This document shows, piece by piece, positions 29,049 through 55,778 of a stretch of 64,000 bases of DNA. This DNA comes from a virus. Taxonomy: Duplodnaviria > Heunggongvirae > Uroviricota > Caudoviricetes. A model generated the notes under the pieces. The model was not told the origin of the DNA and ran no database searches. It saw only the letters and a program-made list of their open reading frames with translations. The stretch covers positions 111,836 to 175,835 of IMG/VR virus record IMGVR_UViG_3300033076_000838; one strand, 5' to 3'. The position numbers were made by a program, and so were the translations under genes. Positions within the stretch are counted from its first letter, which is position 1. Each line of letters opens with the position of its first letter.

Positions 29049-29059
29049 AAAATAGTAAT

Positions 29060-29533: not shown

Positions 29534-29552
29534 AAGTTGTATATTAGCTTTA
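29515..29552 (+). promoter_or_regulatory. phage promoter cassette (variant)
   Basis: AAATTTGG ... GTTGTATATTAGCTTTAT. Confidence 0.4.
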
Positions 29553-29574
29553 TAAAATTAAAACATAAAAGATT

Positions 29575-31047
29575 ATGAATCCATTATTATTGACCGATGG
29601 TTATAAGACAGGACATCACCAACAATACCCAAAAGGGACTACGTTGGTTTATTCCAATTTTACCCCACGTTCTAATAAGTACGCACCAAAAGGGTGTGAC
29701 AAAGTTGTATCATTTGGTCAACAAATGATTATGAAACAAATTCACGAGGCATTCCAAAATGAGTTTTTCTCCAAACCAAAAGATGAGGTTTGTGGTGAAA
29801 TGAAACGTGAGTTAAGTATGTATTTGGGAACTGATTATGATGTTACTCATTTTGAGAAACTACATGATTTAGGTTATTTACCAATTGCAGTAAAAGGTAT
29901 TGAGGAAGGTACAATAGTTCCTATCAAAGTACCAGTATTAACAATCTATAATACTCTACCCGAATTCTATTGGGTAACGAATTATTTAGAAACAATCATC
30001 TCAAATTTATTGTGGAAACCAATGACCTCTGCTACAATTGCACATACATATCGTAAGGTATTAACTGCTTGGTTAGCAATGACCGATATTGAAAAAGATT
30101 GGTTTATTGATTGGCAAGGACACGATTTCTCAATGAGAGGTATGGATTCAGTTGAGGCTACAATCGCAAGTGGTTTAGGTCACTTAACATCATTTAGTGG
30201 AACTGATAGTTTACCTGCAATTTATGGAGCAAGAAAGTACTATGGTGAGAAAGAATTTGTAGGCGGTTCAGTAAATGCAACCGAACATAGTGTAATGTGT
30301 GCGGGTAGTAAAGATGATGAGGTTGGTACATTCCGTAGATTATTAGAAACATATCCAACGGGTATTCTTTCAGTTGTATCTGATACATGGGATTTATGGA
30401 AAGTATGTACCAAACACGTTGTTACTTTGAAAGAAGAAATTTTAGCAAGAGATGGTAAGTTGGTAATCAGACCTGATAGTGGTGACCCTGTCGATATTCT
30501 TTGTGGAAATGGTAGAGAGGTTGATGCTTATAACGATGTTGATGGTAGAGAGCGTTGTGAAAGTAAAGGTGTTATTGAATTACTTTGGGATGTGTTTGGT
30601 GGAACTATCAACGGACAAGGTTACAAAGTATTAGATTCTCATATCGGAGCAATCTATGGTGATAGTATTACGATTGAAAGAGCTAATGAAATTTGTAAAA
30701 GATTAGAAGCAAAAGGTTTCGCATCTACAAACGTTGTATTAGGAATTGGTTCATTCACTTACCAATATAACACTCGTGATACGTTTGGTTTCGCAATGAA
30801 AGCTACTTACGTTGAGATTGATGGTGAAGGTAGAGAAATCTTCAAAGACCCAATTACCGATGATGGAACTAAAAAATCAGCAACAGGTCTATTAAAGGTG
30901 TTTAAAACAACTTTGGAAGGTGATATTGTATTACATGACCAAGTTAGTTGGGAAGAAGAGAGCGAAGGTATATTACAAACCATTTATGAAAATGGTGAGT
31001 TCTATAACGAAACAACTTTGACAGAAATTAAAAATAGATTAAAATAA
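29575..31047 (+). CDS. nadV: nicotinamide phosphoribosyltransferase (NAMPT / NadV-like)
   Basis: N-terminal LLLTDGYKTGHHQQYP is the NAMPT signature; 490 aa. Confidence 0.65.
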   Translation: MNPLLLTDGYKTGHHQQYPKGTTLVYSNFTPRSNKYAPKGCDKVVSFGQQMIMKQIHEAFQNEFFSKPKDEVCGEMKRELSMYLGTDYDVTHFEKLHDLGYLPIAVKGIEEGTIVPIKVPVLTIYNTLPEFYWVTNYLETIISNLLWKPMTSATIAHTYRKVLTAWLAMTDIEKDWFIDWQGHDFSMRGMDSVEATIASGLGHLTSFSGTDSLPAIYGARKYYGEKEFVGGSVNATEHSVMCAGSKDDEVGTFRRLLETYPTGILSVVSDTWDLWKVCTKHVVTLKEEILARDGKLVIRPDSGDPVDILCGNGREVDAYNDVDGRERCESKGVIELLWDVFGGTINGQGYKVLDSHIGAIYGDSITIERANEICKRLEAKGFASTNVVLGIGSFTYQYNTRDTFGFAMKATYVEIDGEGREIFKDPITDDGTKKSATGLLKVFKTTLEGDIVLHDQVSWEEESEGILQTIYENGEFYNETTLTEIKNRLK

Positions 31048-33467: not shown

Positions 33468-34598
33468 ATGGAAAATTTAAATTCAATTTGCTACATTGCA
33501 ACAATTAATGAGATTAACCCAATTGAGGGTGCGGATAACATCGAACTAGCAGTAGTTGGTGGGTGGAACTGCATCACCAAAAAGGGAGAACAAAAGATAG
33601 GTGATTTGGTAATGATTGCTACAACCGATGCAATTATCCCATTTGAGTTATCCGAAAAGATGGGCGTTACTAACTATCTACGAAAAGGTGGTAGAGTTAG
33701 GACAGTAAAATTAAGAGGCGTTTATTCAGAATGTTTAATCATCCCAATCCAACATATTCCATTTATGGAAAACTATTATGAAGGTAAGGATATGATGAAA
33801 GTGATGGGTATTTACAAATACGAACCACCTGTTAAAATGGTTCAACTTGCAGGTGGTAGAAAGATTCGTTATCAAGACAATCCTAATTTCCATGTGTACT
33901 ATAAGTTCCCTAACTTAAAGAATGTGCCGGGAATGTTTACCGAAGAAGACACGGTCGAAATCACTCGTAAGATTCACGGAACTAATGCCCGTTATGGTAT
34001 TGTTAAGAAAAACAAATTATCATTATGGGATAAAATTAGAAAGTTTATTGGATTAGCAGATAAGTGGATTGAATACGAATTCGTAGTTGGTTCGCATAAT
34101 GTGGAGAAGGGTTCAGATTCTAACGGATTCTATGATACTAATGTTTGGTATGAAATCGAAAAGAAATACAACATCAAACAAAAGTTATGGGATTATGTTA
34201 AGGATGATGCAATGGAACCTGAAATCGGTGATGGTATTACCTTATATGGTGAGATTTACGGAGCGGGAATCCAAAAGGGATATGATTATGGGTTGAAAGA
34301 GATTGAGTTCGTAGGATTCGATGTAAAGGAGGAAGGTGAGTATTTAGACCCAATCAATTCAAAGTTGTTAATCGAACATATTTTGGAATTACCATATGTG
34401 GAGCAATTATATTATGGTAGATGGTCACAAGAAGTGCAAGATAAGTATGTATTCAATAACTACATCAAAGGTACGAAAGTACCAGAAGAGGGTATTGTAA
34501 TCAAACATCAATCTAAGGGAAGAGAAAAAATAGCAAAGGTAATCAACCCTGATTATTTAATCTTCGCTGAAAAACATAACGTAGGTGATTCACACTAA
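33468..34598 (+). CDS. ATP-dependent RNA ligase (Rnl2 family) with an N-terminal tRNA-binding OB domain
   Basis: Motif I TRKIHGTNA (T4 Rnl2 has EKIHGTN), motif IV EGIVIKH, and a KIAKV motif V. The N-terminal roughly 130 aa resemble the Myf/CsaA tRNA-binding fold (EGADNIELAVV...IGDLVMIA). Confidence 0.65.
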   Translation: MENLNSICYIATINEINPIEGADNIELAVVGGWNCITKKGEQKIGDLVMIATTDAIIPFELSEKMGVTNYLRKGGRVRTVKLRGVYSECLIIPIQHIPFMENYYEGKDMMKVMGIYKYEPPVKMVQLAGGRKIRYQDNPNFHVYYKFPNLKNVPGMFTEEDTVEITRKIHGTNARYGIVKKNKLSLWDKIRKFIGLADKWIEYEFVVGSHNVEKGSDSNGFYDTNVWYEIEKKYNIKQKLWDYVKDDAMEPEIGDGITLYGEIYGAGIQKGYDYGLKEIEFVGFDVKEEGEYLDPINSKLLIEHILELPYVEQLYYGRWSQEVQDKYVFNNYIKGTKVPEEGIVIKHQSKGREKIAKVINPDYLIFAEKHNVGDSH

Positions 34599-35118
34599 AC
34601 CAACTGCATTAAATCACAACGATTCCAAAGATAGAATCATTGCAACTCATTTCTTACAAGAAAGAGGTTGGTATGATATTGAGGAAGGTGGTGAGTTTGA
34701 ATTAGATTTAATTGTTCCAAAATTCAAACGTGGAGCAGATGTAGAATGTTTTAAGGGTGATATTAATACATTCAAAACTGATGGGTATTTTAGAATTCCA
34801 TTTAGAAAACAAAAGTATTGGAGTGGCGAACCCACTTACATAGATAATGGTGATAGTCAACAAATTAATCCTTACAAAGATTGGTTAGTTGACTATATCC
34901 AATTTTGTAATTCAGGTACCGATGAATTACTTTGGTATAACTACAAACTTGTAAAACACTATCATAAAAACATAATTGAGTGGAAGGGTTTATATAAAAA
35001 GAATTTTATAGGCAATCAAGCTAAATTTATAAAAATACCATATGAAGATGGTATAAAGTATATTCAAAGATGGAAACTGATTAATGGAAGGTGGACAAAA
35101 ATAGATTTGGTAAAGTAA
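34585..35118 (+). CDS. hypothetical protein
   Basis: ORF track. Confidence 0.45.
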   Translation: MIHTKPTALNHNDSKDRIIATHFLQERGWYDIEEGGEFELDLIVPKFKRGADVECFKGDINTFKTDGYFRIPFRKQKYWSGEPTYIDNGDSQQINPYKDWLVDYIQFCNSGTDELLWYNYKLVKHYHKNIIEWKGLYKKNFIGNQAKFIKIPYEDGIKYIQRWKLINGRWTKIDLVK

Positions 35119-35140
35119 AAAATATTTCGTATCTTTGTAA
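35105..35140 (+). promoter_or_regulatory. phage promoter (short form)
   Basis: GATTTGG...TTCGTATCTTTGTAAA. Confidence 0.5.
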
Positions 35141-36031: not shown

Positions 36032-36211
36032 ATGGATAGATTGCATGTTGTTAATTGCACGATTGATGACCATATCTTAAATCATCCTCTTACGGAACAT
36101 CACAAAGATATACAAGATAAAATTGGAGATGCCTTAGAATTATTATTTGAAGCTTACCAAATGGTTGGCAATGAAAGTTACGAATATGATAAAGAGAATA
36201 ACACACATTAG
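36032..36211 (+). CDS. small hypothetical protein
   Basis: Internal ATG of ORF 35975-36211. Confidence 0.25.
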   Translation: MDRLHVVNCTIDDHILNHPLTEHHKDIQDKIGDALELLFEAYQMVGNESYEYDKENNTH

Positions 36212-36965
36212 TGATACACACAACAAACACAATCAACTTACCGATAAATTATCAGGTGGGGATATTCTCATTCATAGTGGGGATATATCTTCGTTAGGTA
36301 GAGAACGCGAAGTTGAAGGGTTTATCAAATGGTTTAATAAGATTGAGGGTTATACTCACAAAATCTTTATTGCCGGTAATCACGATATGTCTTTTGAATC
36401 TGAAATCTTAATGCAAAATAAAATTGATTATTTTGATGGTAAAAGGACAGTATGGGAAACCGAAGGTAATACACATTTTCCATCAAACGGAAAACCACAA
36501 TGGTTGGATATATTGTTAAATTCATGCTTAAACGATAATGTTTATTATTTAGAAAATTCTGACATTACAATTGATGGATTAAAGATTTGGGGTTCTCCTA
36601 TTACACCAACGTTTGGATATAATTGGGCATTCAACAAAGATAGAGGGCATGATATTAATGAGGTGTGGAGTAAAATTCCAACTGATACTGATATTGTTAT
36701 TACACACGGTCCAATCTTTGGATATTGTGATAGAACTGATAGAGGTTATTTAAATGTAGGGTGTGAAGATTTATACCACCGATTAAATGAAATTAAACCA
36801 CACTTACACTTTTCGGGTCACATCCACGAAGCATATGGATATAGACACACCGGGTGGGGTTATGCGTTTAATGGATGTAATTGTGATTTAAGTTATTTAG
36901 TAAATAACAAACCACTTACATTTGATTATGATTTTGAATTGAAAAGTATTATAGATTTTATATAA
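36186..36965 (+). CDS. calcineurin-like metallophosphoesterase (second copy)
   Basis: ITHISDTHNKHN, GDISSLG, IAGNHD and GHIHE blocks; the start is ambiguous (36147 or 36186). Confidence 0.55.
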   Translation: MIKRITHISDTHNKHNQLTDKLSGGDILIHSGDISSLGREREVEGFIKWFNKIEGYTHKIFIAGNHDMSFESEILMQNKIDYFDGKRTVWETEGNTHFPSNGKPQWLDILLNSCLNDNVYYLENSDITIDGLKIWGSPITPTFGYNWAFNKDRGHDINEVWSKIPTDTDIVITHGPIFGYCDRTDRGYLNVGCEDLYHRLNEIKPHLHFSGHIHEAYGYRHTGWGYAFNGCNCDLSYLVNNKPLTFDYDFELKSIIDFI

Positions 36966-45310: not shown

Positions 45311-45346
45311 TTTGGAAAATTAAAAAACTTTTCGTATCTTTGTATA
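45310..45346 (+). promoter_or_regulatory. phage promoter (short form)
   Basis: ATTTGGAAAATTAAAAAACTTTTCGTATCTTTGTATAAA. Confidence 0.5.
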
Positions 45347-45796: not shown

Positions 45797-45979
45797 AAAT
45801 ATTGAGTGAGTGGGGTTTGAAAACTATTAATTAGTTTATTCTTACAATTCTACTATGATGCCAAAATAGCGGATGAACGAATAAGATAACGAATAATTTA
45901 CAAACCTCAAAAATATTAGGGTCTCTTGTCGGCACGTCAATACAATCAAACCTCGCTGAAACCCGAATAACCTTTTTGA

Positions 45980-46264
45980 TTGGATTCATTCTCCACAAAC
46001 TCAAACTTATTAACCACTAAAACAAAAATTATGAATTGGTTTATTACCTATTACGTTCTTTGTATTATTTATTGTTTCTATCAATTAAGCAAAAAATATA
46101 AAGCAAGAGGTGTAGATTATGGAACATCACCAGAGTTAGATTCGATAATGGTATTAGTTATGGCTGGAATATTAGCACCAGTAGATGTAACAATTACTTG
46201 GATTAAAATGGTGAAAGAAGCTGAAGAAGTTAAACGTGAAATTGAAAAAAGGAATATATATTAA
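45980..46264 (+). CDS. small membrane protein
   Basis: Two TM segments. Confidence 0.4.
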   Translation: MDSFSTNSNLLTTKTKIMNWFITYYVLCIIYCFYQLSKKYKARGVDYGTSPELDSIMVLVMAGILAPVDVTITWIKMVKEAEEVKREIEKRNIY

Positions 46265-46277
46265 TATATTCTAATTT

Positions 46278-46366
46278 AGAGAGTTGGCCGAGTTGGTTGA
46301 TGGCACCGGTCTTGAAAACCGGCAGATGTAAAAGTCTCGGGGGTTCGAATCCCTCACTCTCTGCCA
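46278..46366 (+). tRNA. tRNA-Ser (anticodon TGA), type II, CCA encoded
   Basis: Acceptor AGAGAGT/ACTCTCT, anticodon loop CTTGAAA, long variable arm, T-loop GGTTCGAATCC. Confidence 0.8.
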
Positions 46367-46370
46367 AAGT

Positions 46371-46580
46371 ATGATGTTAGAGTTCAAAAAACCAATACCA
46401 GTAGTAGTAGAAGGTAACAAAGATGGATACGCAATCTACGTTACTGATAGTGGTATGTTTGAAAATGATATTTGGTGTGTAGTATTATGTGATGGTGGTA
46501 TAGTTAGACATTACAATTCATCTCAAATAAGGATTTTTCATAACGCAACATTTGACATCAAAAAAGATAATAAATTGTAG
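46371..46580 (+). CDS. small hypothetical protein
   Basis: ORF track. Confidence 0.4.
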   Translation: MMLEFKKPIPVVVEGNKDGYAIYVTDSGMFENDIWCVVLCDGGIVRHYNSSQIRIFHNATFDIKKDNKL

Positions 46581-46748
46581 TGTGTTGGAATTGATTGTGT
46601 AATAACAATCGTGGCAGACAAGCCCTCCTGTCTCGGGGGTGGTGAGAACGAAATAGGTTAGTAATATGGGGTAGACCACCATCCGGCCGGAGAAGTGTTA
46701 TTAACTGAATCGCATCGTGGAGTGTTCGAATCCTCCCACTACAGCAAA
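46576..46748 (+). ncRNA. tRNA-like element of abnormal length (about 173 nt): canonical T-loop plus an acceptor-like pairing TGTAGTG/CACTACA
   Basis: 3' end GGAGTGTTCGAATCCTCCCACTACAG pairs with TGTAGTG at 46576, but the D and anticodon arms are not canonical. Could be an intron-containing or degenerate tRNA. Confidence 0.25.
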
Positions 46749-46770
46749 AGTAAAAAGTTCTTTAACATAT

Positions 46771-47116
46771 GGGGATGTCTGGTATTGACAGATATGAAGT
46801 GTTAGTACAACTGCAAGCAAGGTTAGATGGAAACCTTTGAATACCTATCAAACAATAAACGGCGTTAATAACTACGCTTTGGCTGCCTAATCCCAAAGGG
46901 AAAAGACAACCTCGGGTCGATGCACATTAAACCTCGGAACACAAGTGCTTACAAAGGTGGAAACCAATTGAACCCAAAATCGAATTGGAAACATTAATGA
47001 TAACGAATGTATAAATCTTTATCTATTTTGTTCAGTTAGAAAACGGAACTAAGCTTGTGAATGAAGTTTATTAAACCATATTTTGGACGGGGTTTCGATT
47101 ACCCCCATCTCCACCA
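46771..47116 (+). ncRNA. ssrA: tmRNA (SsrA), tag peptide (A)GVNNYALAA
   Basis: 5' GGGGATGTCTGGTATTGACAG and 3' GGACGGGGTTTCGATTACCCCCATCTCCACCA match the tmRNA tRNA-like domain, with a G3-U70 pair. Internal GGC GTT AAT AAC TAC GCT TTG GCT GCC TAA at 46861-46890 reads GVNNYALAA plus stop. Confidence 0.85.
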
Positions 47117-47276
47117 TTTTTTACGTTTTGTATATTTTTATATATTTATACATACGTTTTGGAATAAGGGTTGAAGCCAACAACTAATAAAACCGATTGT
47201 GTGAACATCTTTCCAACTTATTAGCGGAGGGGTTAAAAAGCCGGATACCCTTAATTCAAAAAAAAAATAAAAAAAG

Positions 47277-47314
47277 ATTTGGAAATATGAAAACTATTTC
47301 GTATCTTTACAAAG
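47277..47314 (+). promoter_or_regulatory. phage promoter (short form) driving the initiator tRNA
   Basis: GATTTGGAAATATGAAAACTATTTCGTATCTTTACAAAG. Confidence 0.5.
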
Positions 47315-47345
47315 TAAAAAGAAAACGTTCTTTAAAATATTATAT

Positions 47346-47417
47346 CGCAGGGTAGAGCAGTGGTAGCTTGGTGGGCTCATAACCCATAGGTCGGAGGTTC
47401 GAATCCTTCCCCTGCAA
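47346..47417 (+). tRNA. initiator tRNA-fMet (CAT)
   Basis: C1-A72 mismatch; three consecutive G-C pairs closing the anticodon stem (GGG-CTCATAA-CCC). Confidence 0.75.
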
Positions 47418-47442
47418 CTAAATAAAAAAACTTTAAAAAAGA

Positions 47443-47479
47443 TTTGGAAATATGAAAACTATTTCGTATCTTTACAAAG
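47443..47479 (+). promoter_or_regulatory. phage promoter (short form), duplicate
   Basis: Identical to the 47277 copy. Confidence 0.5.
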
Positions 47480-47535
47480 TAAAAGAAACCAACCAAACAA
47501 CACAACTATTTTTTAACAATTTAAACAATTAGTAT

Positions 47536-47694
47536 ATGACAAAGTTTTGGAAGTGGTTCGAAAAGTATGGATTTTTAGTTTTAGGTATTAGTAACCTATT
47601 ATGTTTTAATCCTTACAATGCAGTAATTGGGTTAGTATTTATTACCTGGTTTATTGTAGACAAAAAAAATAATAAAAAAGATTTGGAAAATTAA
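47536..47694 (+). CDS. small TM protein (52 aa)
   Basis: MTKFWKWFEKYGFLVLGISNLLCFNPYNAVIGLVFITWFIV...; its 3' end overlaps the next promoter. Confidence 0.3.
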   Translation: MTKFWKWFEKYGFLVLGISNLLCFNPYNAVIGLVFITWFIVDKKNNKKDLEN

Positions 47695-47719
47695 AAAAGT
47701 TTTCGTATCTTTACAAAGT
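47682..47719 (+). promoter_or_regulatory. phage promoter (short form) preceding the ORF-free RNA region
   Basis: GATTTGGAAAATTAAAAAAGTTTTCGTATCTTTACAAAG. Confidence 0.5.
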
Positions 47720-47759
47720 AATCAAACGGATTACAAAAAACGTTCTTTAAAATTATTGA

Positions 47760-49195
47760 AAATATTGTACATAGTAGACTTGTTCTACATAGTACATACC
47801 CGCCGCATATGGTGGTTAAATAAACTTGGAAACAAGGATAAAGTGAATACAATGGTTATTGTGTTTGCGGTTTCATCTTCGGATGGAGCTTGAGTATGCA
47901 AGTGGAATATCATTAGACCTGATTAGTGAGGGTAACTCCGTAGTGAAATGGTTTGATGACTGGGCTCTAGTAGAAGTTCAGTTGAGGTAGGAATATCAAT
48001 AAGAATAATCCATAGAGTTATTGCAAGAAGTAAGGACTTAATCTCTCCTTATCATTGCGTGATTCAATATTAGAGGTTGCTTAAAACCGAAAGGTATGTT
48101 GATGTACAGGTGGTGCTGTTATTTACCTTACCTACATCTCACCAAAGAGTGGGTAATGAAGTAATCTTAAAGTATGACGTTAGAGATAACGTATCGAGTA
48201 GTATAGTATTCCGTTCTTCAAAATGGAACGGAGCTAGTGGTAATCCACTACTTGAATTCATCTACAACCAAAACTCAATTTGCTATTGGTGCAAACTATA
48301 AACAAATAAAGAGAAAGAGGTTACCAGTTGCAGACGAAAGGTGTGTACATAGTAGGGAGTTGTTCCCTGCCACAAATCCCCTCAAAGGAGATGTGATTCT
48401 TTCGAAAAGCTTCTAGCACTGCGAGGTGTTAATCGGGTCGGCGGATTCGAAGAGGTAGAGTACGAAGAGAGTAGTTTGTAACTTTATGAGTGGTAGGCAT
48501 TACTTACCCACATTGAATTGGTACTTCTCAAAAGGAAGTGGAAATTAAGGCAACCCATAACCCTTATAAAGCTGGTTCACAATATGGAGTATTCTCATCC
48601 TTATATTTTTACAATGGTTGTATATTGGTTCGATTCCAATAGTAAAAGCTTCGTAGTGGTTTACGCCAGATTGGTTCGATGTACCTTCGAATAACTGAAT
48701 ACCACTTAAAATAAAAAAGAAAAAAGGTATAATGGTATGGTTTTCCGTAGGGGATTTTCGCCTTAAAGAATCTCAATGATACGAATTTAATTGATGGTAA
48801 GTAACGGATGTAGCTAGTCCTTTGAAAGAACCACCCTACAAAATCTTTCTTTTTTAAACGAACTAATCCTTCGAGGCTTATATTAACCAGAGCATGACTT
48901 GGATGGAGTATTTTGAAGATGGATTAGTTTTTTTATTTAGCTAATAACAAAAAAACAAACAAACGTTACGAAAAAATAATTTTTAGATATTTATAACAAG
49001 ATGAAAAACTTAGCATTACATACAAACAACCAATTACCTACACAAAGACGTGAGTGGGCTGGGAATTGTATGTTTAGTACGATAGTCCTTCCGCAAGCAG
49101 AATTGAATTTTGGCAAGGTAGATTATATTAGTACTCCGTTAAGGGAAGCATCAGGTTGGTAATGATGTAAGATTTAAATAGAAAATATTTGAAGA
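47760..49195 (+). ncRNA. candidate large structured noncoding RNA (about 1.4 kb ORF-free, GC-richer region inside the tRNA array)
   Basis: Promoter at 47682 and terminator at 49197-49229. No ORF longer than 75 aa on either strand. UUCG and GNRA-type hairpins such as CATCTTCGGATG, and tRNA-like T-loop fragments such as ATTGGTTCGATTCCAAT at about 48617. Confidence 0.4.
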
Positions 49196-49196
49196 A

Positions 49197-49229
49197 CCCT
49201 TAACTGATAAAAAAGTTAAGGGTTTTTTC
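49197..49229 (+). terminator. intrinsic terminator
   Basis: CCCTTAAC-TGATAAAAAA-GTTAAGGG plus TTTTTT. Confidence 0.6.
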
Positions 49230-49235
49230 GTATAA

Positions 49236-49307
49236 GGGTTGGTAGCTCAGAGGCAGAGCAATGGTCTGTTAAACCATAGGTCGAGATTTCGAAATTCTCC
49301 CTTCCCT
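49236..49307 (+). tRNA. tRNA-Asn (GTT)-like; acceptor stem has U4-U69 and U5-U68 mismatches
   Basis: D arm GCTC/GAGC, anticodon loop CTGTTAA, T-loop TTCGAAA; acceptor GGGTTGG/CCTTCCC is imperfect. Confidence 0.5.
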
Positions 49308-49325
49308 CAATTAGTTCTTTGATAT

Positions 49326-49397
49326 GCGAATATCGTATAGTGGTTATTACTCCTTCCTTCCAAGTAGGAGACGTAGGTTCGATTCCTACTATTCGCT
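49326..49397 (+). tRNA. tRNA-Gly (TCC)
   Basis: Acceptor GCGAATA/TATTCGC; anticodon loop CTTCCAA. Confidence 0.65.
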
Positions 49398-49405
49398 CAA
49401 TAAAT

Positions 49406-49477
49406 TGCCCGATGGTGTAATGGTTAGCATACATCACTTTGACTGATGTAGTATAGGTTCGAATCCTATTCGGGCAT
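49406..49477 (+). tRNA. tRNA-Gln (TTG)
   Basis: U1-A72; anticodon stem CATCA/TGATG; loop CTTTGAC. Confidence 0.7.
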
Positions 49478-49483
49478 CAATTA

Positions 49484-49559
49484 GGAGATTAGCTCAGTTG
49501 GTTAGAGCATTTGGTTTACATCCAAAGGGTCATAGGTTCGAATCCTATATCTCCTACCA
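49484..49559 (+). tRNA. tRNA-Val (TAC), CCA encoded
   Basis: Acceptor GGAGATT/ATCTCCT; loop TTTACAT. Confidence 0.75.
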
Positions 49560-49566
49560 TTTAAAT

Positions 49567-49648
49567 GCCGACGTCGCATAGTGGCAATTGCAAGGGACTG
49601 TAAATCCCTCCTCTTCGGAGTTCGTAGGTTCGAGTCCTACCGGCGGCA
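49567..49648 (+). tRNA. tRNA-Tyr (GTA), type II
   Basis: Anticodon stem AGGGA/TCCCT, loop CTGTAAA, long variable arm. Confidence 0.7.
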
Positions 49649-49656
49649 CAACAAAT

Positions 49657-49729
49657 GGAGCTTTCGTATAGCTGGTGCGTACGTTGGACTGAAAATCCAA
49701 AGGACGAGGTTCGATTCCTCGAGGCTCCA
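49657..49729 (+). tRNA. tRNA-Phe (GAA)
   Basis: Acceptor GGAGCTT/AGGCTCC; loop CTGAAAA. Confidence 0.75.
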
Positions 49730-49735
49730 CATAAT

Positions 49736-49809
49736 GAATCCGTAGCTCAGTTGGTTAGAGCACCTCACTTTTAATGAGGGAGTCAATGGTTCGAGTCCAT
49801 TCGGGTTCA
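49736..49809 (+). tRNA. tRNA-Lys (TTT)
   Basis: Acceptor GAATCCG/CGGGTTC; loop CTTTTAA. Confidence 0.75.
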
Positions 49810-49814
49810 CATAT

Positions 49815-49890
49815 AGGGTAATAGAGGAGTCCGGTCTATCTCGCTTCGTTTGGGACGAAGAGCACGCAGGTTCGAATCCTGCTTACCCTA
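49815..49890 (+). tRNA. tRNA-Pro (TGG)
   Basis: Acceptor AGGGTAA/TTACCCT; anticodon stem CTTCG/CGAAG, loop TTTGGGA. Confidence 0.7.
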
Positions 49891-49896
49891 CAACAC

Positions 49897-49970
49897 TGGT
49901 AGTTAGCTCATTTGGTTAGAGCATCTCGCTGATACCGAGAAGGTGGCAGGTTCGAATCCCGCACTACCAA
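49897..49970 (+). tRNA. tRNA-Ile (GAT)
   Basis: Acceptor TGGTAGT/ACTACCA; loop CTGATAC. Confidence 0.7.
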
Positions 49971-49981
49971 CTTTGAAATAC

Positions 49982-50052
49982 ACGAGTATGGTGCAATGGT
50001 AGCATACGGCTCTCCAAAAGCTTTGATGTGGGTTCGAATCCTACTACTCGTG
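49982..50052 (+). tRNA. tRNA-Trp (CCA)
   Basis: Acceptor ACGAGTA/TACTCGT; loop CTCCAAA. Confidence 0.65.
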
Positions 50053-50115
50053 CTAAATGAATAAAACTATGAAACAATTATTTGACAAACATTAGGTAAC
50101 GAAACCTAATGTAAA

Positions 50116-50307
50116 ATGAAAGAAGAAAAAGTAAAAAAAATGAATGCAATCTACAACTATTGTATGATTTGCAACAAACGAAATGGTAGTTGGTACTATG
50201 ATTGTCACCCATCATCATTTGGAGCAAAAAGACATGGTAGTGGTAAGATTGTAAGAGTAAGAGAGTGTAAAAGTTGGAAACACAACCGAAAGACTCAATG
50301 GAAGTAA
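50116..50307 (+). CDS. small basic Cys-containing protein embedded in the tRNA array
   Basis: ORF track; CMICN...C...C. Confidence 0.35.
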   Translation: MKEEKVKKMNAIYNYCMICNKRNGSWYYDCHPSSFGAKRHGSGKIVRVRECKSWKHNRKTQWK

Positions 50308-50311
50308 AGAT

Positions 50312-50383
50312 AGTTCCGTAGTTTAACGGATAGAACAATTGGCTACGAACCAGTAAATGGGAGTTCGATTCTCTCCGGAACTA
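50312..50383 (+). tRNA. tRNA-Arg (ACG)
   Basis: Acceptor AGTTCCG/CGGAACT; anticodon stem ATTGG/CCAGT, loop CTACGAA. Confidence 0.7.
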
Positions 50384-50390
50384 CACAATT

Positions 50391-50463
50391 GTCAGGTTGG
50401 CCGAGATGGTTTAGGTGGTGCTCTGCAAAAGCATTTACGTTGGTTCGAATCCAACACTTGACT
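50391..50463 (+). tRNA. tRNA-Cys (GCA)
   Basis: Acceptor GTCAGGT/ACTTGAC; loop CTGCAAA; short D stem. Confidence 0.6.
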
Positions 50464-50468
50464 CAGAT

Positions 50469-50538
50469 TGCGTGACTTAGTGGAAAAGAGTTATCTCTCA
50501 TAAGGATGACCAATTGAGTTCGAACCTCAAACACGCAA
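50469..50538 (+). tRNA. tRNA with CAT anticodon (elongator Met or Ile2 type); D arm atypical
   Basis: T arm TTGAG-TTCGAAC-CTCAA; loop CTCATAA; acceptor TGCGTGA/ACACGCA. Confidence 0.45.
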
Positions 50539-50543
50539 CATAT

Positions 50544-50629
50544 AGAGAGTTACCCAAGTTGGTGAAGGGGCCTGTTTGCTAAACAGGTAGGATGTAAAAG
50601 TCGCAAGAGTTCGAGCCTCTTACTCTCTA
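50544..50629 (+). tRNA. tRNA-Ser (GCT), type II
   Basis: Acceptor AGAGAGT/ACTCTCT; loop TTGCTAA; long variable arm. Confidence 0.75.
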
Positions 50630-50649
50630 CGGAAAAAAATAATACTTAT

Positions 50650-50723
50650 GTCCGTATGGCGTAATTGGCAACCGCACTGGTCTTAGAAACCAGTTTGTGT
50701 AGGTTCGAATCCTACTATGGACA
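50650..50723 (+). tRNA. tRNA with TAG anticodon (reads CUA, Leu by the code) but with a short, type-I variable arm
   Basis: Acceptor GTCCGTA/TATGGAC; perfect anticodon stem CTGGT/ACCAG; loop CTTAGAA; 5-nt variable loop. Confidence 0.55.
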
Positions 50724-50748
50724 CAAAACTAAAAAAAAAGGTAATACT

Positions 50749-51207
50749 ATGGTTTTTAAAAAATTACAATCGAAAGAAGAAATCCAATTGGTTCAGTACA
50801 TTAAAGAGTATATGGAATTAAATACTGATGCTGAGATATTGATTGGTTGTGATTCACAAAACTCTCGTAGTAAAACTATTTACGCAATTGTAGTAGCATT
50901 ATATAGACCGGGTAAAGGTGGTCATGTTCTTTATAGAAAATGGAGTACTGAAAGAGAAAGAGTTCGTTCTATTAGATTATTACAAGAAGTTTGGTTTGCA
51001 ATTGAAACTGCAGAATACTTAAAAGAGAATGGTGTTAAAAAACCTAAGTGGATTGATGTGGATTTAAATCCAGACCCACGATACAAATCTAATGAGGTAT
51101 TCAGACAGGCAGTTGGTATGGTTGAAGGTATGGGATATTCAGTAAGGTATAAATCCTTAGGTCCTATTGCAACATATTGTGCTGACCATTTAGTAAAAAA
51201 TAATTAA
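50749..51207 (+). CDS. hypothetical protein, possibly an RNase H-like fold (weak)
   Basis: Start trimmed to the ATG after the tRNA (the ORF-track start lies inside the tRNA). ILIGCDSQNS...YAIVVALYRPGKGGHVL is weakly RNase H-like. Confidence 0.4.
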   Translation: MVFKKLQSKEEIQLVQYIKEYMELNTDAEILIGCDSQNSRSKTIYAIVVALYRPGKGGHVLYRKWSTERERVRSIRLLQEVWFAIETAEYLKENGVKKPKWIDVDLNPDPRYKSNEVFRQAVGMVEGMGYSVRYKSLGPIATYCADHLVKNN

Positions 51208-51214
51208 ACAAATG

Positions 51215-51252
51215 TTTGGATATATTAAAATAAATTCGTATATTTGTTAAAC
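51215..51252 (+). promoter_or_regulatory. phage promoter cassette
   Basis: TGTTTGGATATATTAAAATAAATTCGTATATTTGTTAAAC. Confidence 0.5.
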
Positions 51253-51279
51253 AATTAGGGAGAACGTTCCCTAATACAT

Positions 51280-51350
51280 CGCGAGGGGGAGGTAAGGTAT
51301 TTCATTGGTCTCATAAGCCAAACTAAGTGGGTTCGATTCCCACCCTACGC
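51280..51350 (+). tRNA. tRNA with CAT anticodon (Met or Ile2 type); acceptor and D arms imperfect
   Basis: Anticodon stem TTGGT/GCCAA, loop CTCATAA, T arm GTGGG-TTCGATT-CCCAC. Confidence 0.45.
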
Positions 51351-51371
51351 AACAAAAAAATGTTAAAAAAG

Positions 51372-51409
51372 ATTAGGAAATTTAAAAATTATTTCGTATC
51401 TTTACAATG
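51372..51409 (+). promoter_or_regulatory. phage promoter (short form) driving tRNA-His
   Basis: GATTAGGAAATTTAAAAATTATTTCGTATCTTTACAATG. Confidence 0.45.
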
Positions 51410-51439
51410 TTCTTTGAGATGATGGTTAGTAAGTAATAT

Positions 51440-51514
51440 GGTGTTTGTAGCTCAACTGGTTAGAGCATCCGATTGTGGTTCGGAAGGTTGTGAGTTCGAA
51501 ACTCATCATTCACC
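51440..51514 (+). tRNA. tRNA-His (GTG) with G-1; acceptor has U4-U69 and U5-U68 mismatches
   Basis: Extra 5' G pairing with C73; D arm GCTC/GAGC; loop TTGTGGT. Confidence 0.65.
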
Positions 51515-51587
51515 CAAGGGGTTTTCAGTCCCAAGTGCTGGTTAGATGAAACACGCTATCCGTATGAGCCCATCAAAACTGAAACTT

Positions 51588-51659
51588 GCTCGGTTCGACA
51601 AGCGGTTAAGTCACGTCCCTTTCACGGATGAGTCACGGGTTCGATTCCCGTACCGAGTA
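51588..51659 (+). tRNA. tRNA-Glu (TTC)
   Basis: Acceptor GCTCGGT/ACCGAGT; anticodon stem CGTCC/GGATG; loop CTTTCAC. Confidence 0.6.
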
Positions 51660-51962
51660 CAAGACATACATCAGCCACATTAATTCCTTCAACCATATTG
51701 AGAGGTTAGTGTATGTTTAGGTAAGAGAGAAGAAGTGGTTGGGACATCTCTTTTACCGATAATATTGTATCAAATGTGCAGTGAAAATTGATGTAGGCAT
51801 ACATTGATGAGGTGGGTTCGATTCCCGTTTAATAATTCTTAGGTCAAAAGCCGGAGGAAGAAGCCAAGTAATTGAGAACACATTATAGCCGGAGTGGGTG
51901 TGCACCTCGTCTAGAGACCCTAATAGTTCCTAATAGGTCGGTATGGAACTGATACATAATTT

Positions 51963-52035
51963 GCCTCCTTAGCTCAGTTGGTAGAGCATCTCATTTGTAA
52001 TGAGAATGTCACTGGTTCGAACCCGGTAGGAGGCT
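51963..52035 (+). tRNA. tRNA-Thr (TGT)
   Basis: Acceptor GCCTCCT/AGGAGGC; loop TTTGTAA. Confidence 0.75.
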
Positions 52036-52329
52036 CGAGTGGATTCATCAGTTGATGAAAACCAATCGGGGGTTGTCCCACTAGAATGGAAACATCCCCT
52101 GCAAATAATGGCTCTATAATTGTTGAGGTCGCACCAAAAGCAATGAGTGGGTGAATGATGATTGAATGTAGCAATCTCCTTAATACTAGGATTGGAGTGT
52201 AAAATTGTTCATACATTTAGTAAGTAGTTCATAAGATGGGTTCGATTCCCATTAGAGTCTCAATGATTACTGAAATTGAATGATACGAGTCCTCAAAGTT
52301 CGAAAAGAGTCAGGCAGTAATCGTTATTT

Positions 52330-52406
52330 GGTGTATTGGTGTAGAGGCCCAACATGCTTCCCTGTCACGGAAGAGACCACGAGTTCGAATCTCGTATACA
52401 CCGCCA
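52330..52406 (+). tRNA. tRNA-Asp (GTC), CCA encoded
   Basis: Acceptor GGTGTAT/ATACACC; anticodon stem CTTCC/GGAAG; loop CTGTCAC. Confidence 0.75.
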
Positions 52407-52407
52407 T

Positions 52408-52479
52408 GGCTCCATAGGTAAAGGGATATACCGCCTCTCTTCTAAAGAGGATTTTCAAGTTCGAGTCTTGATGGGGCTA
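52408..52479 (+). tRNA. tRNA-Arg (TCT)
   Basis: Acceptor GGCTCCA/TGGGGCT; D stem GGTA/TACC; loop CTTCTAA. Confidence 0.7.
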
Positions 52480-52526
52480 CATAACATTAAAACATTAAAC
52501 CTTAAAATAAACCAAAACAAAATTGT

Positions 52527-52937
52527 ATGCAAAATCTTTTTATTAGTATTATTATGTTGTTTTTACCATTAGAGGTTACGACAACAAATGTAGAAATTGA
52601 AGAAAGTAGTAATTTAGAAGAGTTAGGAGTAGTGACGGTCACAACTTACAAACCAACATCAGGAGAAACTGATTCTACACCAAACGTTACCGCAAGTGGA
52701 TTTAAGATTAGTAAGAAGAATCCTAAGAAACACCGAATCATCGCAGTAAGTCGTGATTTAAAACGTAAGTTAAAATTCGGACAGAAAGTTCGATTGAAGA
52801 ACGCAGGTAAGTATAATGGTGAGTATGTTGTAAGGGATGTAATGAATAAGAGATATAAAAAACGTATTGATATTCTAATCAACCCAAAAGACAAACAAAC
52901 AAAACTTTCAAAAGTGAAAGTCTATAAAGTGAAATAG
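52527..52937 (+). CDS. 3D-domain (MltA / YuiC-like) cell-wall hydrolase-like protein
   Basis: TTYKPTSGETDSTPNVTASG...IIAVSRD...LKFGQKV...GEYVVRDVM...RIDIL matches the three-Asp 3D-domain pattern; N-terminal signal segment. Confidence 0.5.
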   Translation: MQNLFISIIMLFLPLEVTTTNVEIEESSNLEELGVVTVTTYKPTSGETDSTPNVTASGFKISKKNPKKHRIIAVSRDLKRKLKFGQKVRLKNAGKYNGEYVVRDVMNKRYKKRIDILINPKDKQTKLSKVKVYKVK

Positions 52938-52942
52938 AGTTT

Positions 52943-53028
52943 GCCCCGATGGAGAAACTGGTAGACTCGCAGCACTTAAAATGCTGTTCGCCGTAAGGAG
53001 AGTGCAGGTTCAAATCCTGCTCGGGGCA
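52943..53028 (+). tRNA. tRNA-Leu (TAA), type II
   Basis: Acceptor GCCCCGA/TCGGGGC; loop CTTAAAA; long variable arm. Confidence 0.8.
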
Positions 53029-53131
53029 CAATGTAATGATTCGAAAGAATAGCGGAACGGATGCTAAGAATGAAATGGAAACAATTGAAGCTCGTATAAA
53101 GGAGTGAATTTGAAACAAACCGCACAGACAT

Positions 53132-53215
53132 TACATTATTTGGGGGTGTAGCTCAGTTGGCTAGAGCACTTGCCTTGCACGCAAGGGGTCGTGGGTTCGA
53201 GTCCCTCCTCCTCCA
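53132..53215 (+). tRNA. tRNA-Ala (TGC) with G3-U70; U6-U67 mismatch
   Basis: Acceptor GGGGGTG/CTCCTCC; loop CTTGCAC. Confidence 0.65.
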
Positions 53216-53267
53216 CTATCGTTGATATAAACGATAAAAACTATTATCATCAATATAGATGATATTA

Positions 53268-53344
53268 GGGCTTGTAGCTCATTCGGTTAGAGCAACTGAC
53301 TCATAATCAGTAGGTAATAGGTTCGATTCCTATCTGGCCCACCA
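53268..53344 (+). tRNA. tRNA-Met (CAT), CCA encoded; U6-U67 mismatch
   Basis: Acceptor GGGCTTG/CTGGCCC; D arm GCTC/GAGC; loop CTCATAA. Confidence 0.7.
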
Positions 53345-53360
53345 ATTTAATAAATAAATT

Positions 53361-53549
53361 ATGCAACACTTAAATGAATACATGAAAGGGTTATTACCTA
53401 TCGTAGTTGTTACACTTGCGTTATACATATACGATTCACATAGGAATCCTTATACCCATAGTTCTATTTTAGAAATTTTCGGTGGAGTTATGGTGTGTGT
53501 TCTTTTAATAGGTGCTGTTAAGGAATACAATCGTAACGATGAGGTATAG
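53361..53549 (+). CDS. small membrane protein
   Basis: Two TM segments. Confidence 0.4.
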   Translation: MQHLNEYMKGLLPIVVVTLALYIYDSHRNPYTHSSILEIFGGVMVCVLLIGAVKEYNRNDEV

Positions 53550-53748
53550 TAGTTTTAATTACCCAATAAGACGAATTAACGATAAATTATATCAGGTCAT
53601 TGCTGAATATTCTTTTGAAGTTGTCAAAGATGTCAATAGTATCAAAGAATGGTTAGAATGTGATGTAGCATTCAAAAGTAACCAAACAAACACTTATCTT
53701 TTTTGTAGAACAATCGAAGATGTCAATTTCGAATCTATAACCACATAA
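53539..53748 (+). CDS. small hypothetical protein
   Basis: Internal ATG of ORF 53512-53748. Confidence 0.35.
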   Translation: MRYSSFNYPIRRINDKLYQVIAEYSFEVVKDVNSIKEWLECDVAFKSNQTNTYLFCRTIEDVNFESITT

Positions 53749-55052: not shown

Positions 55053-55778
55053 ATGGCAGAGAATCAATCCCAAAAACACAAGCAGTTGACAGAACAAATA
55101 CAAGAAGATAAAACAAACAGACCAAAGGCTCCAATTAAGTTTCAGTTACAATTAAACGAAGAACAAAAAGAAGCAAAAGAAAAGATTCTCAATAACGCAA
55201 TTACCATCCTAAGTGGTAAAGCTGGAAGTGGTAAAACTCTTTTGGCATGTCAGGCAGCATTGGATATGTTGTTCAAAAAGAAAATCAATAAAATTATTAT
55301 CACAAGACCGACAGTTAGTAAAGAAGAAATCGGATTCTTACCAGGTGACCTTAGAGAAAAAATGGAGCCGTGGATGCAACCAATTTATTCTAACTTTTAT
55401 CAATTATACAATAAAGAAAAAATTGATAAGATTTTAGAATCTGGTCAAGTAGAAATCGTTCCTCTTGCATTTATGAGAGGTAGAACTTTTTTAGATTCAT
55501 TTATTATTGTGGATGAAGCACAAAACTGCACGAATGACCAAATGGAAATGATTACATCTCGTTTAGGTATTCGTAGTAAAATGGTAATTTGTGGTGATAC
55601 CCAACAAGTGGATTTAAAATATAAGGGAGAAAGTGGATTTAAGTTCTTATTATCCGTTGCAAAGAAAATTAAGGATATGGATTCCCAAACCCTACTTACC
55701 AACCATAGACACCCAGTCGTTGATGCCCTATTAGATGCATATACTGAATTCAACGAAACAATAGGTAAAAAATCATAA
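55053..55778 (+). CDS. phoH: PhoH-like ATPase
   Basis: Walker A SGKAGSGKT; ITRP, GFLPG, IVDEAQN and GD-QQ-DL blocks typical of PhoH. Confidence 0.7.
   Translation: MAENQSQKHKQLTEQIQEDKTNRPKAPIKFQLQLNEEQKEAKEKILNNAITILSGKAGSGKTLLACQAALDMLFKKKINKIIITRPTVSKEEIGFLPGDLREKMEPWMQPIYSNFYQLYNKEKIDKILESGQVEIVPLAFMRGRTFLDSFIIVDEAQNCTNDQMEMITSRLGIRSKMVICGDTQQVDLKYKGESGFKFLLSVAKKIKDMDSQTLLTNHRHPVVDALLDAYTEFNETIGKKS

Follow-up and report, generated by a model that had tools for sequence, protein, structure and literature searches.

The region described here, positions 46278-53344 of a 64,000-nucleotide (nt) stretch of IMG/VR virus record IMGVR_UViG_3300033076_000838 (Caudoviricetes; positions 111,836 to 175,835 of the record, hereafter 'the window', whose own numbering is used throughout), is packed with transfer RNA (tRNA) genes. 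We regard it as likely that it constitutes a translation-RNA island of an AT-rich jumbo phage (the window has a G+C content of 32%), comprising a complete decoding set in which the unusual tRNA with a UAG anticodon at 50650 belongs to leucine, and in which the four tRNAs with a CAU anticodon (CAT in the DNA) act as initiator, extra initiator-like copy, elongator Met and Ile2 tRNAs.

ARAGORN and Rfam, the latter at its gathering threshold, agreed on 25 tRNA genes, all on the + strand and scoring 35.8-74.2 bits against the Rfam tRNA cut-off of 29 bits. ARAGORN, the check proposed in the preliminary description of this DNA, also returned one transfer-messenger RNA (tmRNA) on the same strand. That description had counted 26 tRNAs, and the count holds, because a further CAU tRNA at 50469-50539, which lies below standard thresholds, is indel-free in 27 variants and shows strong covariation among them (see below). 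It had also listed three tRNA-Ser genes, of which there are only two, at 46278 (UGA) and 50544 (GCU); the surplus 'Ser' near the start of the array probably corresponds either to the tmRNA (46771-47116) or to the 171-nt tRNA-like RNA (46576-46746). The positions of all features are collected in Table 1.

The anticodons encoded are UGA and GCU (Ser), UAA and UAG (Leu), ACG and UCU (Arg), UCC, UUG, UAC, GUA, GAA, UUU, UGG, GAU, CCA, GCA, GUG, UUC, UGU, GUC, UGC and GUU, together with CAU in several roles. With the compact Met tRNA included, the set amounts to 24 anticodon species covering all 20 amino acids. Four-codon boxes are each served by a tRNA with U34, except that CGN is served by ACG, and with its Ile2, elongator Met and initiator members the set is predicted to read essentially all sense codons, CGG being the likely exception. 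The codons preferred by the phage are GCA (61%), CCA (62%), GTA (45%), TTA (62%), AGA (51%), AAA (75%), GAA (77%) and CAA (89%), and ACA and TCA are also preferred. N73-C74 is encoded in 25 of the 25 tRNAs called by ARAGORN and in the compact Met tRNA, while the full CCA is encoded in only four of those 25, which implies a CCA-adding enzyme in their maturation. The discriminator base of the serine tRNAs varies: among 17 sequences from the window and its relatives, the class II tRNA(GCU) has A73 in 14 and G73 in three, and tRNA-Ser(UGA) has G73 in seven and U73 in five. This variation is odd, because G73 of Escherichia coli tRNA-Ser is an antideterminant against leucyl-tRNA synthetase (LeuRS) (PMC9976931).

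Table 1. Features of the tRNA region and of its surroundings in the window.
Feature	Position	Strand	Basis
Phosphoribosyl pyrophosphate (PRPP) synthase and NAMPT (nicotinamide adenine dinucleotide (NAD) salvage)	28188-31047		
RNA ligase, T4 Rnl1-like (phrog_968)	33468-34598		
Metallophos phosphoesterase and PhoH	among 36147-36965, 55053-55778		
tRNA-Ser(UGA), class II, G73, CCA encoded	46278-46366	+	ARAGORN; Rfam 56.6 bits
171-nt tRNA-like RNA	46576-46746	+	blastn conservation, acceptor covariation, RNAalifold
tmRNA, tag GVNNYALAA	46771-47116	+	ARAGORN; Rfam RF00023, 82.8 bits (cut-off 47)
Promoter-like repeat (TTTGGAAA...TTCGTATCTTTACAA)	47276-47315	+	repeat family; putative promoter
Further copies of the repeat	47441-47480, 47680-47719, 51213-51252, 51371-51410		
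Initiator tRNA-fMet (CAU)	47346-47418	+	Rfam 63.8 bits; fMet features
GOLLD RNA (5' domain ~47730-48193; Rfam 3' domain 48194-48601)	47730-48601	+	RF02032, 261.5 bits
Candidate tRNA-like minihelix, 44 nt, directly after GOLLD	48606-48649	+	pattern only
Ten-tRNA block: Asn GUU, Gly UCC, Gln UUG, Val UAC, Tyr GUA, Phe GAA, Lys UUU, Pro UGG, Ile GAU, Trp CCA	49236-50053	+	ARAGORN, Rfam; order shared by relatives
tRNA-Arg(ACG) and tRNA-Cys(GCA)	50312-50464	+	ARAGORN, Rfam
Compact non-canonical CAU tRNA, elongator-Met type	50469-50539	+	covariation in 27 variants
tRNA-Ser(GCU), class II, A73	50544-50630	+	ARAGORN
Short-arm (class I) tRNA-Leu(UAG)	50650-50724	+	Rfam 64.7 bits; cloverleaf covariation; Leu-type D arm
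RNase H-like protein (PF04308/DUF458) inside the array	50749-51207	+	Pfam E 1.3e-20; synteny
Divergent initiator-like CAU tRNA, second copy	51280-51353	+	ARAGORN (as 51281-51351); Rfam 35.8 bits
tRNA-His, tRNA-Glu(UUC) and tRNA-Thr(UGU), with conserved non-coding modules between (51670-51756, 51766-51962)	51441-52036	+	ARAGORN, Rfam, blastn
68-nt non-coding module	52037-52104	+	100% identical in L001, L006, L013 and L017
Second large tRNA-like RNA candidate, 152 nt, between tRNA-Thr and tRNA-Asp	52110-52261	+	conserved in L016/L017
tRNA-Asp(GUC) and tRNA-Arg(UCU)	52330-52480	+	ARAGORN, Rfam
tRNA-Leu(UAA), class II	52943-53029	+	ARAGORN
tRNA-Ala(UGC)	53142-53216	+	ARAGORN, Rfam
Canonical-shaped CAU tRNA, tRNA-Ile2 (lysidine) type, CCA encoded	53268-53344	+	3:70 and 4:69 pairs

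Comparative evidence came mainly from 17 relatives, viral contigs of IMG/VR that are 17-289 kb long and were retrieved with the RNase H-like protein encoded within the array; the identity of this protein is 67-91%. Gene order is largely kept in all 17, with tmRNA, CAU tRNA and GOLLD followed by the tRNA block in unchanged order. The contigs of relatives are designated by L-numbers (L001 etc.), L022 being LR756502, a 642-kb huge phage. In the 50,697 phage records on deposit no close DNA relative was found; megablast with the 7.3-kb region as query gave a 53-nt tRNA as its sole match.

In order to assign the four CAU tRNAs, whose anticodons were confirmed at 47346, 50469, 51280/51281 and 53268, we applied the discriminators of Silva et al. 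(2006; PMC1635315) to each of them. According to that work, C3-G70 occurs in Met and fMet tRNAs, G3/A3 or C70/T70 is exclusive to tRNA-Ile(CAT), C4-G69 is common among Ile2 tRNAs, and A11-T24 together with G12-C23 is confined to fMet (N-formylmethionine) tRNA. The tRNA at 47346 has the C1xA72 mismatch and the three G-C pairs of the anticodon stem (G29-31:C39-41) for which it had originally been singled out, and in addition G2-C71, C3-G70, A11-T24, G12-C23 and A73, so that every defining initiator feature is present and its sequence is that of a canonical, textbook initiator tRNA. The remark that a phage-borne initiator tRNA is unusual stands in part: such genes are uncommon, with matches in 114 of the 50,697 phage records, but they have precedents, the matches including phiCbK-like Caulobacter phages, Cellulophaga phi4:1, Pseudomonas D3 and huge phages. 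The remaining three CAT tRNAs had been proposed to be an elongator Met, a possible Ile2 and an extra copy, and these roles fall to 50469, 53268 and the initiator-like 51280, respectively.

The tRNA at 53268 has a G-C pair at 3:70 in the window and A-T in most of its orthologues, with C4-G69 in all of them; it also keeps a conserved U6xU67 mismatch. By these pairs it is of the tRNA-Ile2 type and predicted to depend on lysidine for its identity, which is consistent with heavy use of ATA (37% of the Ile codons of the phage, 526 codons). The one inspected high-coverage match in the E. coli collection is an ileX-like gene labelled 'tRNA-Ile' by PGAP. Labels of 'tRNA-Met' on CAT tRNAs in phage databases were disregarded, as they are annotated by anticodon only.

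The CAU tRNA at 50469 scores 21.5 bits with Rfam, under the cut-off, and is not called by ARAGORN with default settings; at -ps80 or -mt, ARAGORN returns tRNA-Met(cat) at 50469-50539, in the same register as ours, with the label 'D-loop mtRNA'. In 14 of the first 18 sequences, the window included, a compact, indel-free element of 72 nt follows tRNA-Cys and precedes the tRNA after it, and a motif scan extended its distribution to 38 IMG/VR contigs (up to 436 kb) and LR756502 (at ~6000-6070), giving 27 distinct variants. In these variants the acceptor pairs 1-6:67-72 are 99.4% paired and six of the six covary, while positions 7 and 66, mostly purines by eye, pair in only 3.7%. The D stem, of 3 bp and 100% paired, follows directly after position 7 without the linker of positions 8-9, its 10:25 pair being C-G, A-U or G-C, and closes a 7-nt loop, AGTGGAA. 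The anticodon stem has 6-7 bp (93% paired, five pairs covarying) and is closed by an invariant U31.G39; the variable loop is only 3 nt long; and the T arm is standard, 100% paired, with covariation at all five pairs. None of 500 shuffles matched these pairing values. No variant departs from the others in the CAU anticodon, the anticodon loop, the T loop, the D-loop GG, A73 or C74.

The element departs from the canonical cloverleaf, having neither the 7-bp acceptor stem, the 2-nt linker, the 5-bp anticodon stem nor the 4-5-nt variable loop. A register with a 7-bp acceptor stem (starting one nt upstream, with a bulged A and C73) was rejected, since the extra pair forms in only 48% of the variants. 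Because C3-G70 is found in 25 of the 27 variants, the 1:72 pair is formed in 27 of 27 and the D stem, N-T-T/A-A-N, is not that of fMet, we assign the compact tRNA to the elongator Met type. Its orthology to an ordinary tRNA is supported by L009, which has in the same slot a canonical-shaped CAU tRNA whose acceptor likewise starts with TGCG and whose loop is likewise UCUCAUAAGG. Two further elements were seen beside the compact tRNA in L001, L004-L006, L008, L013 and L017, neither of which is present in the window: ~60 nt with a T-arm-like hairpin (e.g. GGATACTGGGTGTATCGCCTGACGAGGAGAGTGTGGTTCAATTCCACA) on its 5' side and ATAATATATTATACA repeats on its 3' side.

The compact sequence motif was seen almost exclusively in phage contigs. 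A scan of one genome for each of 185,579 prokaryotic species, which is sequence-specific and would miss the same fold in another sequence, gave 27 matches, of which one is a true copy, on a 1.6-kb contig of a metagenome-assembled genome and identical to a viral variant; the other 26 are chance matches with no T arm. A literature search, incomplete in its coverage, found no earlier description of this tRNA, and its novelty is not proven. The nearest parallels in architecture are the pyrrolysine tRNA (tRNA-Pyl) and mammalian mitochondrial tRNA-Ser(UCN), with which it shares a linker of 0-1 nt, a small D loop, an anticodon stem of at least 6 bp and a 3-nt variable loop, and, in the mitochondrial case, retention of G18G19 and a standard T loop (PMC7609411). 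It differs from both in having CAU rather than CUA or UGA, A73 rather than G73, and six acceptor pairs plus a conserved purine-purine 7:66, in being encoded by a phage and in showing no sequence homology to them. It is not itself a tRNA-Pyl, which is defined by CUA, G73, G1:C72 and a cognate PylRS, whereas the compact tRNA has CAU, A73 and U1-A72; only the architecture is alike.

It is unlikely, in our view, that the two assignments are reversed, with the compact 50469 as the lysidine-modified tRNA-Ile2 and 53268 as the elongator tRNA-Met. The compact tRNA does carry U12:A23, which is one of the elements recognized by isoleucyl-tRNA synthetase in E. coli, and a codon as frequent as ATA might favour an unusual dedicated tRNA; the database labels of 'tRNA-Met' on relatives of 53268 would also fit, for what an anticodon-only annotation is worth. 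The assignments could be swapped, moreover, because discrimination by TilS and methionyl-tRNA synthetase has lineage-specific determinants that co-evolve with the host (PMC1635315). Against this, 53268 and all of its orthologues have the G3-C70 or A3-T70 found only in tRNA-Ile(CAT) (PMC1635315), as well as C4-G69, and the one inspected high-coverage match of 53268 in the E. coli collection is the ileX-like gene that PGAP labels 'tRNA-Ile', whereas the compact tRNA has, with C3-G70 in all but two variants and G4-C69, the Met/fMet state.

The register of the fourth CAU tRNA, at 51280-51353, was set by the N73-C74 rule that holds throughout the array. It resembles bacterial initiator tRNA-fMet in C1xA72, G2-C71, C3-G70, A11-T24, G29-C41, G30-C40 and A73, but departs from it in several places: U31.G39 replaces the third G-C pair of the anticodon stem, 12:23 is G12.U23, A5 and A68 are mismatched, and a single additional nucleotide follows the T stem, before the acceptor strand. 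Relatives of this tRNA on other contigs have the acceptor strands CGCGGGG...CCCCGCAAC, as in the acceptor stem of the E. coli initiator (CGCGGGG/CCCCGCA), and an anticodon arm GGU-CUCAUAA-GCC, and in L016 and L017 a tRNA of this type fills the initiator slot after the tmRNA. The changes that set 51280 apart from its orthologues are confined to loop, variable-region and junction (position 26) sites. We read it as a divergent second initiator-like gene, of uncertain function.

The poor scores of 50469 and 51280 with the standard model, the missing 8-9 linker of the former and the A:A acceptor mismatch and extra nucleotide after the T stem of the latter might suggest that both are decaying pseudogenes, or decoys with no part in translation that soak up, for example, a tRNA-targeting nuclease. 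We consider this very unlikely. A decaying gene is not expected to remain indel-free through 27 variants on 38 contigs with all helices covarying at 91-100% pairing, to hold its anticodon loop, T loop, D-loop GG, A73 and C74 invariant, and to keep a slot in the array that is occupied by a canonical-shaped orthologue in one relative; nor would decay readily account for differences in 51280 that are limited to the sites named above, or for the replacement of the initiator by its type in two relatives. A decoy role, on the other hand, would be compatible with the sequence data.

The tRNA at 50650 was first described as having the anticodon loop CTTAGAA and a short variable region, both of which are confirmed, the variable region being of 4-5 nt. 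All 16 relatives whose contigs extend over the site have a short-arm tRNA-Leu(UAG) of 74-76 nt, which in 15 of them immediately precedes the RNase H-like gene and in L011 lies at another place in the array, and every member of the family has a variable region of 4-6 nt, without the long arm (at least 10 nt) that is the hallmark of class II. In an alignment of 14 sequences, which included three short-arm tRNA-Leu genes from deposited phages, 96.8% of the cells of the cloverleaf are paired and 17 of 20 pairs show double-sided changes, a result equalled by none of 500 shuffles. The D arm, with a 3-bp stem and an 11-nt loop, TAATTGGCAAC, has the same architecture as that of the phage's own class II tRNA-Leu(UAA), and apart from the missing arm the molecule aligns with E. 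coli leuW, the tRNA-Leu(UAG).

The long arm had been taken to be an identity element of bacterial tRNA-Leu, and this tRNA accordingly to be a possible device for recoding or mis-charging, or an identity switch. That premise is wrong, because E. coli LeuRS does not need the arm: it requires A73, A15:U48, G18G19, A20a and U8:A14, and can do without the anticodon as well as the long arm (Giegé and Eriani 2023; PMC9976931). U8, A14, A15, G18, G19, A20a, U48 and A73 are invariant in the 14-sequence alignment. The meaning of the codons was examined in 43 window open reading frames (ORFs) with orthologues in relatives (139 high-scoring segment pairs). CTN makes up 22% of the Leu codons of the phage, and the aligned codon is one for Leu in 85% of cases for CTA, 74% for CTT and 84% for CTC+CTG, compared with 80% for TTA and 69% for TTG; the commonest partners of CTN codons are TTA, CTT, TTG and CTA. 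CTN behaves as leucine in this phage, and the proposal of recoding, mis-charging or an identity switch finds no support.

Short-arm leucine tRNAs recur in other phages. Among deposited phages, the best full-length blastn matches of the tRNA(UAG) carry a tRNA-Leu annotation, with ungapped matches to the short-arm tRNA-Leu of T5-like (across the variable region), Gordonia and Aeromonas phages; blastn against E. coli genomes gave no match. The phage T5 record (AJ604531) has a 77-nt tRNA-Leu (tRNAL2), with a note that it works as an effective amber suppressor when its anticodon is CUA; the tRNA-Leu(UAG) of Gordonia phage Phendrix, which reads CUA, is 75 nt long; and Aeromonas phage Akh-2 has a 74-nt tRNA-Leu(UAA). 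A short variable loop has also been described for tRNA-Leu(TAG) in a horizontally acquired mycobacterial tRNA cluster with GOLLD (Behra et al. 2019; PMC6582537). These tRNAs are like ours in length (74-77 nt), in a variable region of 4-6 nt, in a 3-bp D stem with an NAAYTGGNANN loop and in the invariant Leu elements, and unlike it in that identity is only ~75-80% and the acceptor stems differ. LR756502 carries both arm versions side by side, with short- and long-arm tRNA-Leu(UAG) (74 and 84 nt) and tRNA-Leu(UAA) (76 and 85 nt) within 1 kb (4050-5055), whereas the window tRNA-Leu(UAG) is the sole CUN decoder of a complete set. The sequence at 50650 is thus that of a leucine tRNA body without the long arm, with all of the elements recognized by bacterial LeuRS, and represents a recurrent phage feature.

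That this tRNA reads CUN but carries another amino acid, so as to poison host translation or recode phage genes in the manner of yeast mitochondrial tRNA-Thr(UAG) or Ashbya tRNA-Ala(UAG), is extremely improbable: a class I shape is atypical among bacterial tRNA-Leu, fungal mitochondria do reassign CUN through UAG tRNAs (PMC7609411) and CTN is a minority of the phage Leu codons, but both of these types are excluded by a normal 7-nt anticodon loop, compared with 8 nt in the yeast tRNA-Thr, and by a 3:70 pair that is never G:U (C-G in eight, U-A in five and G-C in one of the 14 sequences), so that the Ala element G3:U70 is absent, and the remaining evidence – invariant LeuRS elements and a Leu-type D arm in line with leuW, interchange of CTN with TTA/TTG at the rate of other Leu codons, the lack of any other CUN decoder in the set, and a T5 homologue annotated as tRNA-Leu with its amber-suppressor note – points the same way.

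A tmRNA and a GOLLD RNA, neither of which had been reported in this region, accompany the tRNAs. The tag of the tmRNA is much longer in most relatives (e.g. AVELSTMTFEDAMAFVGADYAVAA) and is GEYNYAIAA in L009. GOLLD lies ~310 nt downstream of the initiator tRNA, just as GOLLD env-38 lies downstream of a Met-tRNA; its 3' domain matches the whole of the Rfam model (1-416 of 416; E 2e-73; gathering score 150), and its 5' part is 81-91% conserved in relatives by blastn. Six of the six relatives tested with Rfam have GOLLD (260-307 bits) and five of the six have tmRNA.

Most of the intergenic segments proved by blastn to be conserved modules in the relatives, and several have tRNA-like features. The 171-nt RNA has a 7-bp acceptor stem (TGTAGTG/CACTACA), a T arm, G73-C74 and a long branched body with no anticodon arm. 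The acceptor stem covaries (TGTAAGG/TCTTACA in L002 and TGTGGTA/TACCACA in L009), RNAalifold gives 48 pairs of which 16 covary, the full CCA is encoded in L009, L010, L011 and L015, and in relatives the RNA is always just 3' of tRNA-Ser(UGA). On the alignment, by eye, it has no conserved frame that would form a tmRNA-like tag ORF. A possible H-type pseudoknot, AGACA-AG-CCCTCC-TGTCT-C-GGGGG, was noticed in its body. The 152-nt candidate has an acceptor stem GGCTCTA/TAGAGTC, a T arm and U73-C74, with no sequence variation in which covariation could appear, and the 44-nt minihelix would consist of a 7-bp stem (TTTTTAC/GTAAAAG) and a T arm, ATTGG-TTCGATT-CCAAT, and like the 152-nt candidate it ends in N73-C74. 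The tRNA cluster of phage T4 likewise encodes two stable RNAs of unknown function.

The 68-nt module lies directly 3' of tRNA-Thr in the window and directly 5' of tRNA-Asp in the four relatives that share it, where the flanks diverge; because it adjoins a different tRNA in each case, modules appear to be shuffled between genomes. Two other modules were noted: 197 nt (51766-51962) always directly 5' of tRNA-Thr, with 85-88% identity, and 112 nt (53030-53141) between tRNA-Leu(UAA) and tRNA-Ala, with 84-95% identity and ends that can pair (AATGTAATG/CATTACATT). No Rfam family was found for the conserved intergenic modules at an E-value threshold over 45900-53600; weak matches to Plastid-ycf2, YrlA, tmRNA_permuted and PreQ1 were rejected as antisense or tRNA-overlapping artefacts far below their gathering scores. 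Single-sequence folding of three intergenic modules gave unremarkable z-scores (-0.96 to -1.75), and our statements on module structure rest on comparative data, where such data exist.

Five copies of a promoter-like repeat, with four exact 15-mers inside the array, sit upstream of the fMet tRNA, a small ORF, GOLLD, the second initiator-like tRNA and tRNA-His. The motif TTTGG(A/T)AA-N-TTCGTATCTTT(A/G) was also seen at 35106-35137 and 45311-45342. The repeat resembles the -33 TTTG and -7 TAnnTTTG promoter elements of Bacteroidetes. The exact consensus, TTTG-N17-21-TAnnTTTG, is not enriched in the window (5 matches, 3.9 expected), where repetition is limited to the longer motif peculiar to the phage. 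The RNase H-like gene, which follows the short-arm tRNA-Leu(UAG) directly on its 3' side in 15 of 17 relatives, might conceivably have a role in RNA processing. Near the array, the RNA ligase, Metallophos phosphoesterase, NAMPT/PRPP synthase and PhoH genes are likely to form a toolkit for tRNA repair and anti-defence; they correspond to the RNA-repair and NAD-salvage repertoire reviewed for jumbo phages (PMC7824862). PhoH shows 62% identity to its counterpart in Flavobacterium phage immuto, the second-best match being 47%, and the homologue of the compact tRNA in LR756502 is in keeping with the same host group, as five of five genomes larger than 634 kb were predicted to infect Bacteroidetes (PMC7162821), a group to which this 642-kb genome would belong. 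From these leads we infer that the host is probably a member of the Flavobacteriia/Bacteroidota.

On the reading of the region as a translation-RNA island, the tRNA genes would be transcribed from the repeated phage promoter motif, and the transcripts matured by host RNase P, 3' trimming and CCA addition. The set would then allow the A/U-ending codons of the phage to be translated independently of a mismatched, depleted or cleaved host tRNA pool. The four CAU tRNAs would divide the AUG and AUA tasks between them, 47346 as initiator, 51280 as extra initiator-like tRNA, 50469 as elongator Met and 53268 as Ile2, the last requiring host TilS.

Several points weigh against this reading. The match to codon usage is imperfect, in that GGT makes up 57% of the Gly codons and is not cognate to the sole Gly tRNA (UCC). 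The codon test reads the meaning of CTN in phage genes, not the amino acid on tRNA(UAG) itself. The amino acids were assigned from identity elements and from published discriminators that derive mostly from work on E. coli and other bacteria outside the Bacteroidota, and the roles of Met and Ile2 tRNA given to 50469 and 53268 could, as discussed above, be the wrong way round.

Loss of the arm in the leucine tRNA and compaction of the core in the methionine tRNA are plausible as means of escape from host defences that target tRNAs. That the deviant adaptors as a group – the tRNA-Leu without its arm, the compact tRNA-Met, the initiator-like copy with U31.G39 and perhaps the RNAs of 150-170 nt – are a deliberate structural camouflage from such defences is a more speculative proposal, which we regard as doubtful. 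They would still have to be charged by host synthetases and used by ribosomes, while escaping defences that read the class II arm, the geometry of the D arm and linker, or the anticodon stem; anticodon nucleases, VapC-like toxins against tRNA-fMet and MenT-like nucleotidyltransferases would be examples. If this were true, the compact tRNA-Met would be the first tRNA of its fold class that is neither organellar nor a tRNA-Pyl.

Under the island reading, the locus is a minimal yet complete decoding set, with 24 anticodon species for 20 amino acids. Because default tools miss the compact tRNA-Met, the tRNA counts in print for huge phages may be too low. Compaction of the tRNA core is otherwise known only from tRNA-Pyl and mitochondrial tRNA-Ser(UCN), and a natural compact tRNA-Met, presumably accepted by the bacterial machinery, should be of interest to those working on tRNA structure and orthogonal translation. 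The conserved non-coding RNAs crowded around GOLLD also offer a compact, syntenic system in which to probe the roles of GOLLD and tRNA-like RNAs in infection.

Phage tRNA arrays with GOLLD and tmRNA are already known, and short-arm tRNA-Leu is a recurrent but little-discussed phage feature. Like the arrays of huge and jumbo phages and the mycobacterial arrays with GOLLD (PMC12286853, PMC6582537, PMC7162821, PMC7824862), the present one is a dense, same-strand cluster serving all or most amino acids, with GOLLD inside or beside it and tmRNA and RNA-repair genes nearby. The family represented by the window differs from them in adding a compact tRNA-Met, a second initiator-like tRNA and several conserved tRNA-like RNAs, and it is the compact tRNA-Met, together with the set of tRNA-like RNAs, that may be new.

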